The notes beneath the pieces were generated by a model. That model was not told the origin of the DNA and did no database searches. It saw only the letters and a list, made by a program, of their open reading frames with translations. Shown in pieces: positions 60,047 through 60,285 of a stretch of 64,000 bases of DNA. Position 1 is the stretch's first letter, and the number at the start of each line of letters is the position of its first letter. Source of the DNA: Candidatus Enterousia sp. (lineage in GTDB: Bacteria > Pseudomonadota > Alphaproteobacteria > Rs-D84); the NCBI GenBank assembly GCA_045606425.1, contig JAZURV010000011.1, positions 3,496 through 67,495 of the forward strand. Reading direction: 5' to 3'. The position numbers and the translations under genes are program-made.

Positions 60047-60285
60047 TCTTTCCCCCGTTTCCCAAAAAAAGACCGCCAAAGAAATTGGTGGTCGGGGGTT
60101 AGAACAGCATAATCGAGAAATGCCCCACTTGCGTGGCACCCCGACCTGTGTCAGGGCATTGACGCGAATGCGCCAAGGACGAATTCAGCACTTTTGTGCC
60201 GCTCAATTCTGGGATGTTCTAAGTCCCGAACCCAATTCCCATTGGATTCACCATGAACTATATCACAAAATCTATAAATAGACAA
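60047..60285 (-). promoter_or_regulatory. promoter plus about 200-nt structured 5' leader with antiterminator/terminator (leader L3; homologue of 22608-22877)
   Basis: Minus strand: TTGTCT-17-TGaTATAGT (60257-60285). Stems: P1 GAAUCCAAU-GGGA-AUUGGGUUC, P2 GGGA/UCCC, P3 GAAUU-gag-CGGCAC-AAAA-GUGCUG-AAUUC, P4 UUGGCGC/GCGUCAA. GGUCGGGG pairs with CCCCGACC, which overlaps terminator GACCACC/GGCGGUC plus U7 (60064-60098). Confidence 0.55.

Follow-up and report, generated by a model that had tools for sequence, protein, structure and literature searches.

L3, a probable terminator/antiterminator leader within a lineage-wide family of folded RNAs in Candidatus Enterousia

Introduction

The gut Alphaproteobacteria known as Candidatus Enterousia (order Rs-D84) are uncultured; their genomes span 0.75-1.0 Mb and their metabolism is minimal (PMC12306168). 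The present report concerns L3, a region at positions 60047-60285 on the minus strand of a 64-kb stretch of Candidatus Enterousia sp. DNA (the window, by which the whole of the analysed stretch is meant). It consists of a promoter, a structured RNA of ~185 nucleotides (nt), an intrinsic terminator followed by U7, a ribosome-binding site (RBS) and the ATG of a signal-peptide protein, g1, which is followed by a second gene, g2. A preliminary description of the window had taken L3 for the second clear member, after L2, of a candidate RNA family. It is now evident that L3 truly belongs to a large family of folded leader RNAs, hitherto undescribed, in gut Alphaproteobacteria with tiny genomes, and the literature on Enterousia, RF32 and Rs-D84 yielded no publication describing this leader RNA. 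Within this lineage-wide family of leaders of ~200-240 nt, L3 is probably a cis-acting terminator/antiterminator leader of the g1-g2 operon.

Layout of the L3 Leader

All parts of L3 lie on the minus strand. A consensus scan places a sigma-70-type promoter at 60257-60285, with the -35 element TTGTCT at 60280-60285, a 17-nt spacer and the extended -10 element TGATATAGT at 60257-60265, just as the preliminary description had it. Transcription is predicted to start at ~60249-60251. The promoters of the family likewise follow the form TTGnnn-17-TGnTATAAT and end ~7 nt 5' of the first hairpin, P1. On its 5' side, the intergenic space that holds the L3 promoter is bounded by tRNA-Trp at 60437-60510. 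The ~185 nt between promoter and terminator are G+C-richer sequence, in which a series of helices can be laid out.

The 5'-terminal hairpin P1 (60228-60249) reads GAAUCCAAU-GGGA-AUUGGGUUC, its loop being a GNRA tetraloop, and is followed by the P2 hairpin GGGA...UCCC (60209-60228), whose loop UUAGAAC at 60216-60222 constitutes the 5' strand of a long-range pairing, PKa, and by the 5' strand of P3, AAUUGAG (60202-60208), with its partner CUCGAUU at 60111-60117. Next come the hairpins P4, CGGCAC-AAAA-GUGCUG (60186-60201; columns 57-62/89-94 of the family alignment), P5, UUGGCGC-AUUC-GCGUCAA (60159-60176; columns 129-133/149-153), and P6 (60139-60156), in which CCCUGAC at 60150-60156 pairs across the loop ACAG with GUCGGGG. 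P6 is the putative anti-antiterminator, and the strand GGUCGGGG at 60139-60146 is shared between it and a later helix. The hairpin CCAC-GCAA-GUGG at 60125-60136, seen already in the preliminary description, is a truncated form of the larger conserved P7; canonical members have a P7 domain of ~60 nt at this place, and the covariance-model alignment gives L3 a 30-position deletion there. L3 contains every other helix of the family. P8 (60099-60124) is formed by GCAU at 60120-60123 and AUGC at 60107-60110 and holds the 3' strand of P3, CUCGAUU, in its loop; in L3 and L109 this GCAU/AUGC stands in for the AUCA/UGAU of other members. Directly 3' of P8 lies the 3' strand of PKa, GUUCUAA (60099-60105).

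The leader ends with two overlapping elements. The 3' strand of P9, the putative antiterminator, is CCCCGACC at 60090-60097, the partner of GGUCGGGG at 60139-60146. Its GACC is common to the 5' arm of the intrinsic terminator (60064-60093), made up of GACCACC at 60087-60093, a 9-nt loop, GGCGGUC at 60071-60077 and U7 at 60064-60070. The RBS GGGGGAAAGA at 60047-60056 and the ATG at 60044-60046 complete the region. Most of this had been recognised before: the terminator was correctly described, save for one A.C mismatch in its stem, and the position of GGUCGGGG and its complementarity to CCCCGACC stand, the latter having been put at 60091-60098, one base off in a run of five C. Similarly, a distance of 17 nt is right but runs from the U-tract to the ATG at 60046 and not to the RBS. 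The claim of a long-range helix between AAUGCCC (60154-60160) and GGGCAUU (60119-60125) fared less well, the two segments being complementary in L3 but the helix not conserved, as its central pairs form in 4/96 and 7/93 sequences; the long-range pairings that are conserved instead are UUAGAAC/GUUCUAA and AAUUGAG/CUCGAUU. The minimum free energy (MFE) folds of both L3 and L2 are the state with P6 and the terminator, with z = -3.9 and z = -5.9, respectively, against dinucleotide shuffles.

A Family of Leader RNAs

An exact-pattern scan of one genome per species with the shared 5' hairpin, GAATCCAA-N2-8-TTGGGTTCGGG, returned at least 119 loci, nearly all in Candidatus Enterousia and related gut alphaproteobacterial metagenome-assembled genomes (MAGs); a few matches in other phyla were without the rest of the element. 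Among the matches listed, ~110 from ~75 MAGs are true members, so that the family numbers at least 110, with up to five members per MAG. The MAGs concerned are labelled Candidatus Enterousia, Rickettsiales or Alphaproteobacteria and come from ruminant, horse, human, mouse, chicken and termite guts. A covariance model was built from the 106 unique members that were aligned. In the window, it recovers L2 (22641-22874, plus strand; 226.3 bits, E 8e-69), which is a canonical member, L3 (60051-60251, minus strand; 122.5 bits, E 1e-36) and the divergent member L1 (11776-11968, minus strand; 35.7 bits, E 1e-9). A family profile run with nhmmer gives 92 bits for L3 and 191 bits for L2 and missed L1. 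The earlier alignment of L3 with L2 is borne out by these scores, which lie far above chance, and in a MAFFT alignment that spans promoter, 5' hairpin and terminator the two have a mean column identity of 73%. Members score 150-230 bits on the sense strand versus 20-38 bits on the antisense strand, as expected for RNA helices containing G.U pairs.

The family extends to phages. Three IMG/VR phage contigs, which encode terminase, tape-measure and tail genes, hold full members of 164-213 bits upstream of small moron-like genes (L120, 5243-5438, minus strand; L121, 13226-13455, minus strand; L122, 4878-5119, plus strand), and these cassettes lie either on the strand opposite to the structural genes or beyond them. 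Because full members precede small genes on phage contigs, the phages of these bacteria use the host leader for moron-like genes.

Decayed or minimal copies also occur (L055, 4663-4762, minus strand; L042, 63-174, minus strand; L100; L082). Some of them keep P1, P2 and the terminator without the centre, and others are without the 5' strand of P6; the latter would be predicted to be constitutively antiterminated. Further, tRNA genes often directly adjoin the leader cassettes, as at window positions 60437-60510 and in L040 (1047-1132), L098 (1389-1475) and L020 (754-824), which is as expected for island-like insertions.

Conserved Fold and Covariation

Covariation was tested on a MAFFT alignment made without structural input (A2) against a hand-specified structure of 62 pairs. 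In this structure 94.2% of cells pair, versus 82.8% in shuffles, and 41 of the 62 pairs show compensatory double changes. The covariation score of 0.368 compares with 0.168 for column shuffles, none of 500 of which was as high, and with the partners displaced by 1-3 columns it falls to 0.06-0.08. P1 shows no variation in A2 because it had served as the search pattern; it co-varies in the members found otherwise (L042, L005, L093 and L1 of the window).

The remaining helices vary with compensation. The fourth pair of P2 co-varies, giving GGGA/UCCC, GGGU/ACCC and GGGGC/GCCC. PKa (columns 36-40/298-302), whose partner segment lies ~110-180 nt downstream of the P2 loop, includes a position with CG in 36, GC in 27, AU in 19 and UA in 6 members. 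P3, a helix of 7-10 base pairs (bp) with the P8 loop as its 3' strand, shows all four Watson-Crick pair types at nearly every position. Double changes affect five of the six pairs of P4, a GNRA-capped hairpin in the family, and all five pairs of P5, which is absent from some members, and the conserved bipartite P7 domain, UAUAAAACAGGG...CCCGAAAG, co-varies across the family. P6 is paired in 96% of cells, with double changes in four of seven pairs. For P9 (columns 197-207/305-315), the corresponding figures are 95% paired and five pairs with double changes, with 0/500 shuffles as good. The terminator is 98% paired across the family, and at least five U are found in the next 8 nt in 96 of the 106 members. 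The strand order and short loops of P2 with PKa and of P8 with P3 are those of two H-type pseudoknots, and this topology suggests that the two are packed together.

Two other pairings were considered and set aside. RNAalifold proposed to pair GGG (27-29) with CCC (309-311), columns that are nearly invariant (GC100/GU6, GC106, GC106). By eye, the base in the variable column 30 changes along with its local P2 partner (variants GGGA, GGGU and GGGGC), although a fixed 30-41 register of P2 pairs in only 20 of 99 sequences. The local P2 hairpin with the pseudoknot is preferred because column 30 tracks its local partner and because the GGG/CCC columns are nearly invariant. A P4/P5 'cruciform' (57-63/147-153) arises from the similar sequences of the two hairpins, and L3 and L002 support two separate hairpins. 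Apart from these, a subset of the terminators (window 22833-22854, plus strand, and many others) read CGCUCUUUC in the 5' arm and loop, to be compared with the boxA consensus GCUCUUUA; other members have different loops, and the resemblance may be coincidental.

The Three-Strand Switch

Central to the interpretation are three strands that cannot all be paired at once. The middle strand, GGUCGGGGAG, pairs either with the upstream CCCUGAC, forming P6, or with the downstream CUCCCCGACC(GCC), forming P9. The GACC that ends the P9 3' strand also opens the terminator 5' arm, so that the two overlap by four bases. The preliminary description had set the pairing of GGUCGGGG with CCCCGACC against the terminator, and this competition is the part of its account best supported by covariation, including three-way compensatory changes. 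The third strand, CCCUGAC at 60150-60156, was absent from it; by sequestering GGUCGGGG, this strand makes the switch a three-part one. The main type of P6 5' strand, middle strand and P9 3' strand is CCCUGAC, GGUCGGGGAG and CUCCCCGACC. In L1, L024 and L081 the three strands read CCUCCAAC, GGUUGGAGG and CCUCCAACC, in the second copy of L003 CCCUGCG, CGCGGGGUG and CACCCCGCG, and in L044 CUCCUGA, CCAGGAGG and CCUCCUGACC, while single-position triplets of the form G..C/U..G are found in L005 and L024. The three strands change together, and therefore P6 and P9 are two mutually exclusive helices, both under selection, of which P9 precludes the intrinsic terminator, i.e. an attenuation switch. The median nearest-neighbour energies are -13.2 kcal/mol for P6, -12.7 for the terminator and -18.3 for the P9 duplex, and by the same measure P6 and the terminator together are more stable than P9 in 103 of 106 members.

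In the mechanism that these pairings suggest, transcription would start just 5' of the GNRA-capped P1, and the RNA would then fold into a compact domain comprising P2, with its loop engaged in PKa, P3 with the P8 loop, and the hairpins P4, P5 and P7. If GGUCGGGG(AG) pairs with CCCUGAC to give P6, CCCCGACC would be left free to nucleate the terminator GACCACC/GGCGGUC-U7, and RNA polymerase would stop 17 nt before the ATG. If GGUCGGGG(AG) pairs instead with C(U)CCCCGACC to give P9, the GACC of the terminator would be occupied and the polymerase would read through. The default would be termination, or off, because P6 with the terminator is the more stable state by nearest-neighbour energies and in the MFE folds of L2 and L3, and a putative effector favouring the P9-closed fold would turn the genes on. 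This P9-closed fold would form a module resembling the small RNA (sRNA) sRNA-Xcc1. Two elements of this account are inferred, namely which state is the default and that there is an effector at all; the latter may be a small molecule, an ion, a protein or RNA polymerase itself. In its strict ligand-binding sense, 'riboswitch' would be too firm a label for L3.

Several points weigh against this account. Termination and read-through are sequence-based predictions, and the A.C mismatch noted above interrupts the L3 terminator stem. The downstream genes share no metabolic theme, and peripheral domains (P5, P7, P3/P8) are missing in some members, P7 in the case of L3, both of which would be unusual for a metabolite-binding aptamer. 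Moreover, P9 crosses P3 and PKa in a pseudoknot topology, and nearest-neighbour folding cannot settle which of these helices would coexist. C305 and U306 emerge first and pair with A206 and G207, which P6 leaves free, and such a toehold geometry could let P9 win kinetically, in which case the polarity could be the reverse.

Cis Arrangement and the Controlled Genes

Downstream of the leaders, a same-strand open reading frame (ORF) with a Shine-Dalgarno-like sequence follows the terminator stem, its start lying at a median distance of 29 nt and at no more than 60 nt in 80 of 103 members; in the window, the distance from terminator stem to start codon is 25 nt for L3, 24 nt for L2 and 28 nt for L1. 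Because of this spacing there is no room for a separate promoter between terminator and gene, and the arrangement argues that the leader acts in cis on the next gene. For L3, that gene is g1 (59372-60046, minus strand), which encodes 224 amino acids beginning with the signal peptide MKKFFVLLCVLFVGIAHA and gives a weak Flg_new match, followed by g2 (58686-59369, minus strand) with a signal peptide and Cys-rich repeats. The same pair also stands behind leaders in L024, L032, L078, L081 and L096 and behind L1 of the window, where the paralogues of g1 and g2 are a Flg_new-like gene at 10974-11768 and a gene for a Cys-rich secreted protein at 10318-10974 (both minus strand). L2 precedes a secreted protein (22878-23828, plus strand) and a trypsin-like protease.

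Across the family, ~55-60% of the first downstream genes encode signal-peptide proteins, lipoproteins included, and most of the 84 downstream proteins scanned are without a Pfam match. The matches obtained are to Flg_new (5), Chlamydia PMP repeats (3) and EcoRI-type methylase (3), together with Dcm, N6/N4 methylase, UvrD helicase, Mrr, RgpF, acyltransferase-3, GT4 and OMP beta-barrel. Overall, the downstream genes are mostly those of secreted or surface proteins, with restriction-modification and defence genes and phage morons in addition. One recurring class behind the leaders carries a signal peptide and Cys-rich C-x-SGYY...C-x2-C repeats, with one Ephrin_rec_like match; it is seen in g2 (58686-59369, minus strand) and in downstream genes of L049, L062, L079 and L093, and is reminiscent of variant surface proteins.

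The reach of the g1-g2 operon could be longer. After g2, a gap of 108 nt is followed by virB8, virB9 (with a SPOR domain) and virB10; no terminator was found between g2 and virB8, and the only clear one follows virB10 at ~53950-53975. It is possible, on this arrangement, that the operon extends into virB8-10. In relatives' loci, virB genes were not found next to the leader cassette. Both the control of virB8-10 by the leader and the 'adhesin' label that the preliminary description gave to the operon stay at candidate status. The virB8-virB9-virB10 cluster itself (53976-58577, minus strand), in which the SPOR domain of VirB9 is C-terminal, stands alone between yidC and tRNA-Trp/secE/nusG. No other type IV secretion system genes adjoin it in the window, and it may be a ComB-like or remnant core complex.

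Relation to sRNA-Xcc1

No Rfam 15 family reaches its gathering threshold in the 64-kb window apart from three tRNAs. Scans of L3 and L2 at E up to 10 gave a single relevant match, a sub-threshold one of L3 to sRNA-Xcc1 (RF02221) at 25.7 bits, with none for L2, the gathering score being 53; they matched no family of riboswitches, T-boxes, leaders or other sRNAs. Such matches always fall on the P9-enclosed module and on the correct strand. The locus L040 attains 48.5 bits (E 6e-8) in an end-to-end alignment that includes conserved internal-loop nucleotides, and other members give 51.5, 44.4, 38.6, 34.2, 33.2, 32.9 and 28.3 bits; no family member reaches the gathering score of 53 bits. Reciprocally, fetched true Xcc1 loci, which score 69-86 bits on RF02221, score 28-29 bits (E ~3e-8) on the Enterousia covariance model.

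The RF02221 family occurs in integron cassettes, phages and plasmids of Proteobacteria. sRNA-Xcc1 itself is an 88-nt RNA first seen in Xanthomonas campestris as a discrete species by Northern blot and rapid amplification of cDNA ends (RACE) (PMC2996969). It has since been placed upstream of symE in integron cassettes (bioRxiv 10.1101/2025.06.18.660453) and upstream of an ORF6N gene in APSE phages (PMC7313666), and Xylella holds seven copies (PMC12189769). For a canonical member such as L040, the P9 module matches the RF02221 model over its whole length: the match takes in a G/C-rich outer helix, hairpin 1 (with AUA-AAUAC...GGAA), the linker UUUGAAC and hairpin 2. All of the RF02221 elements, namely the AUACAAUAC...GGAA internal loops of hairpin 1, hairpin 2, the UUUGA-type linker and the outer helix, are present in canonical members such as L040, and on the same fold L3 has the outer helix, hairpin 2 and the linker, with hairpin 1 reduced to CCAC-GCAA-GUGG. 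Both RNAs also lie directly upstream of same-strand accessory or mobile-element genes; in the fetched Xcc1 records these begin 35-70 nt downstream and are ant in phage Aaphi23 (just after Q), an antitermination ORF in Stx phages and a BRO-family gene on a Pseudomonas plasmid. The two also differ. Members of the Enterousia family have, in addition, P1, P4, P5 and a contiguous P6, and their module is fused to an intrinsic terminator that overlaps it. sRNA-Xcc1 is annotated as an 88-nt trans-acting sRNA, and in the loci examined the hairpin that follows it is non-overlapping or without a U-tract; the true loci have a hairpin with U6-7 and a spacer of ~45-60 nt between the 5' domain and the module. 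We conclude that the Enterousia leader is an expanded distant relative of sRNA-Xcc1 and not a member by the Rfam criterion.

Six true Xcc1 loci (L125, 1370-1570; L126, 1363-1603; L127, 1400-1580; L128, 1380-1601; L129, 1700-1869; L130, 1385-1582) share a conserved upstream domain. In it, a small hairpin ~100-150 nt upstream has a loop that could pair with the Xcc1 linker, while the 6-8 nt directly after this hairpin are complementary to the hairpin 2 loop. Each locus has its own, fully compensated sequences, although six loci are too small a sample for a statistical test. In the same loci, a hairpin with the loop CCCG(U/A)CAGA and U6-7 comes next. The pairings have the topology of PKa and P3, involving segments that the Rfam model treats as unpaired, so that a larger cis-acting leader may have the 'sRNA' Xcc1 as its core. 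The Stx phage P13374 has isrK and the C4 antisense RNA (L129, 763-950, plus strand) in one regulatory region with its sRNA-Xcc1 element, ~850-1000 nt upstream of it, and this element precedes the antitermination ORF.

Alternative Explanations and Known Systems

The unit could be a free-standing gene for a trans-acting sRNA that merely adjoins the operon, or a terminated leader with a second role in trans. It has its own promoter and terminator and occurs in many copies per genome, and the related sRNA-Xcc1 is, as noted, a discrete RNA described as trans-acting (PMC2996969). Against this, the orientation is always that of the next gene and the short distance to the start codon leaves no promoter room; a co-varying antiterminator overlapping the terminator would be unneeded in a plain sRNA; and bona fide sRNA-Xcc1 elements also precede same-strand genes at 35-70 nt. 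Such a gene is quite unlikely to account for L3. Processive antitermination that is directed at RNA polymerase or dependent on a factor, as with HK022 put, EAR, LoaP leaders and RfaH/ops, would let long accessory operons such as g1-g2-virB8-10 be read through terminators instead of sensing a metabolite, and would be a variant of the same mechanism. The gene set, with its surface structures, envelope modification, restriction-modification and phage morons, does resemble what specialised antiterminators control, sRNA-Xcc1 sits in phage regulatory regions by Q-like and antitermination genes, and the Xcc1 closing helix with its two stem-loops resembles the shape of put RNA (PMC9378689). However, HK022, the carrier of put, gives no RF02221 match, and a local switch is what the three-way co-varying pairing and the built-in terminator point to; no candidate protein partner for processive antitermination was identified. 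This variant seems rather unlikely.

A dispersed DNA repeat, whether a miniature inverted-repeat transposable element, a recombination cassette or a shared 5' cassette for antigenic variation, could also be conserved by copying, and the element is indeed multi-copy, stands in front of variable surface-protein genes and is often near tRNA genes. Copies in the same genome are, however, strongly diverged (36, 226 and 122 bits for L1, L2 and L3) and yet keep every helix by compensation, the G.U pairs make the structure strand-specific, and neither terminal inverted repeats nor target-site duplications are present, which leaves a repeat very improbable. As for coding, the ORF 59372-60139 with its GTG start does run through the leader, as the preliminary description had stated, and translation from 60139 could give g1 an N-terminal extension or yield a regulatory leader peptide. 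That open frame contains the terminator and U7, whereas a strong RBS precedes the ATG at 60046, with which a typical signal peptide begins, and homologues start at the equivalent Met behind their own leaders. Within the leader neither a start nor an ORF is conserved (in no 10-column bin is a start common to more than 40 of the 106 members), the substitutions in helices are compensatory, and the covariance-model scores of the two strands differ ~six-fold. The earlier preference for RNA structure over coding is borne out, and a coding leader is next to inconceivable. A leader-peptide attenuator was likewise rejected, there being no conserved start codon or ORF in the leader.

The cis-acting attenuator, which is the preferred explanation for L3, has counterparts among known systems. 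Transcriptional riboswitches such as the S-box/SAM-I and pbuE adenine elements, and T-box leaders, similarly act in cis through three exclusive strands that decide a terminator just before the RBS, below a large conserved folded domain upstream. The Enterousia family differs in that no Rfam riboswitch or T-box model matches L3 or L2 at E up to 10, the downstream genes are without a metabolic theme and offer no ligand candidate from context, and the anti-antiterminator is a small hairpin inside the fold and not the closing helix of an aptamer. A T-box leader was rejected on the same lack of a match, together with an uninterrupted P9 helix and downstream genes unrelated to amino acids. The HK022 put, EAR, RfaH-ops/JUMPstart and LoaP leader elements also precede accessory, surface-structure or phage operons, and put RNA likewise has two stem-loops joined at a closing helix, but these systems have no co-varying alternative pairing with a terminator of their own; homology to put finds no support, HK022 being without an RF02221 match.

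In terms of genomic distribution, c-di-GMP-I (GEMM-I) riboswitches offer a parallel, as they occur in many copies per genome before heterogeneous secreted, surface and unknown-function genes. The Enterousia family is likewise multi-copy in a heterogeneous secreted and surface gene context, but has no sequence or structure match to them and also precedes restriction-modification genes and phage morons. In the c4 antisense RNA/ant immunity of phages P1 and P7, two short element-specific complementary segments connect an RNA domain lying upstream with the leader of a gene of the antirepressor type, and RF01695 is present in the Stx phage locus. The pairing sequences in both cases differ between elements and are compensated; sequence and fold differ, and the Enterousia partners lie on one transcript with an intrinsic terminator as the readout.

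Biological Implications

The leader family combines a covariation-rich fold of ~200 nt, two apparent H-type pseudoknots and an unusually clear three-strand switch, and constitutes an orphan attenuator. The same leader is reused before surface proteins, envelope-modifying enzymes, restriction-modification genes and prophage morons, which suggests a possible main control point for the face that these bacteria show to hosts, partner cells and phages. Gene control of this kind would amount to an RNA-based regulon, and the lineage is probably short of many protein regulators after genome loss.

sRNA-Xcc1 has a wide distribution that takes in Stx phages, Xanthomonas integrons, Xylella islands and plasmids. 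The link to Enterousia suggests that it forms the core of a cis-regulatory leader, either instead of acting in trans as an sRNA or in addition to doing so. A more far-reaching proposal, speculative and on balance more apt to fail than to hold, is that the Enterousia leaders and the Xcc1 elements of phages, integrons and plasmids would form one superfamily of portable cis-acting attenuators, in which a 5' domain locks onto two single-stranded segments of the Xcc1 fold, pairings that the present Rfam model and the label of a trans-acting sRNA would overlook. In gut symbionts with genomes below 1 Mb, the module would have expanded into a genome-wide regulon, in which a single signal would co-control the surface proteome, restriction-modification and defence, and prophage morons; this signal could be read by a new class of riboswitch or act through a mechanism directed by RNA polymerase.

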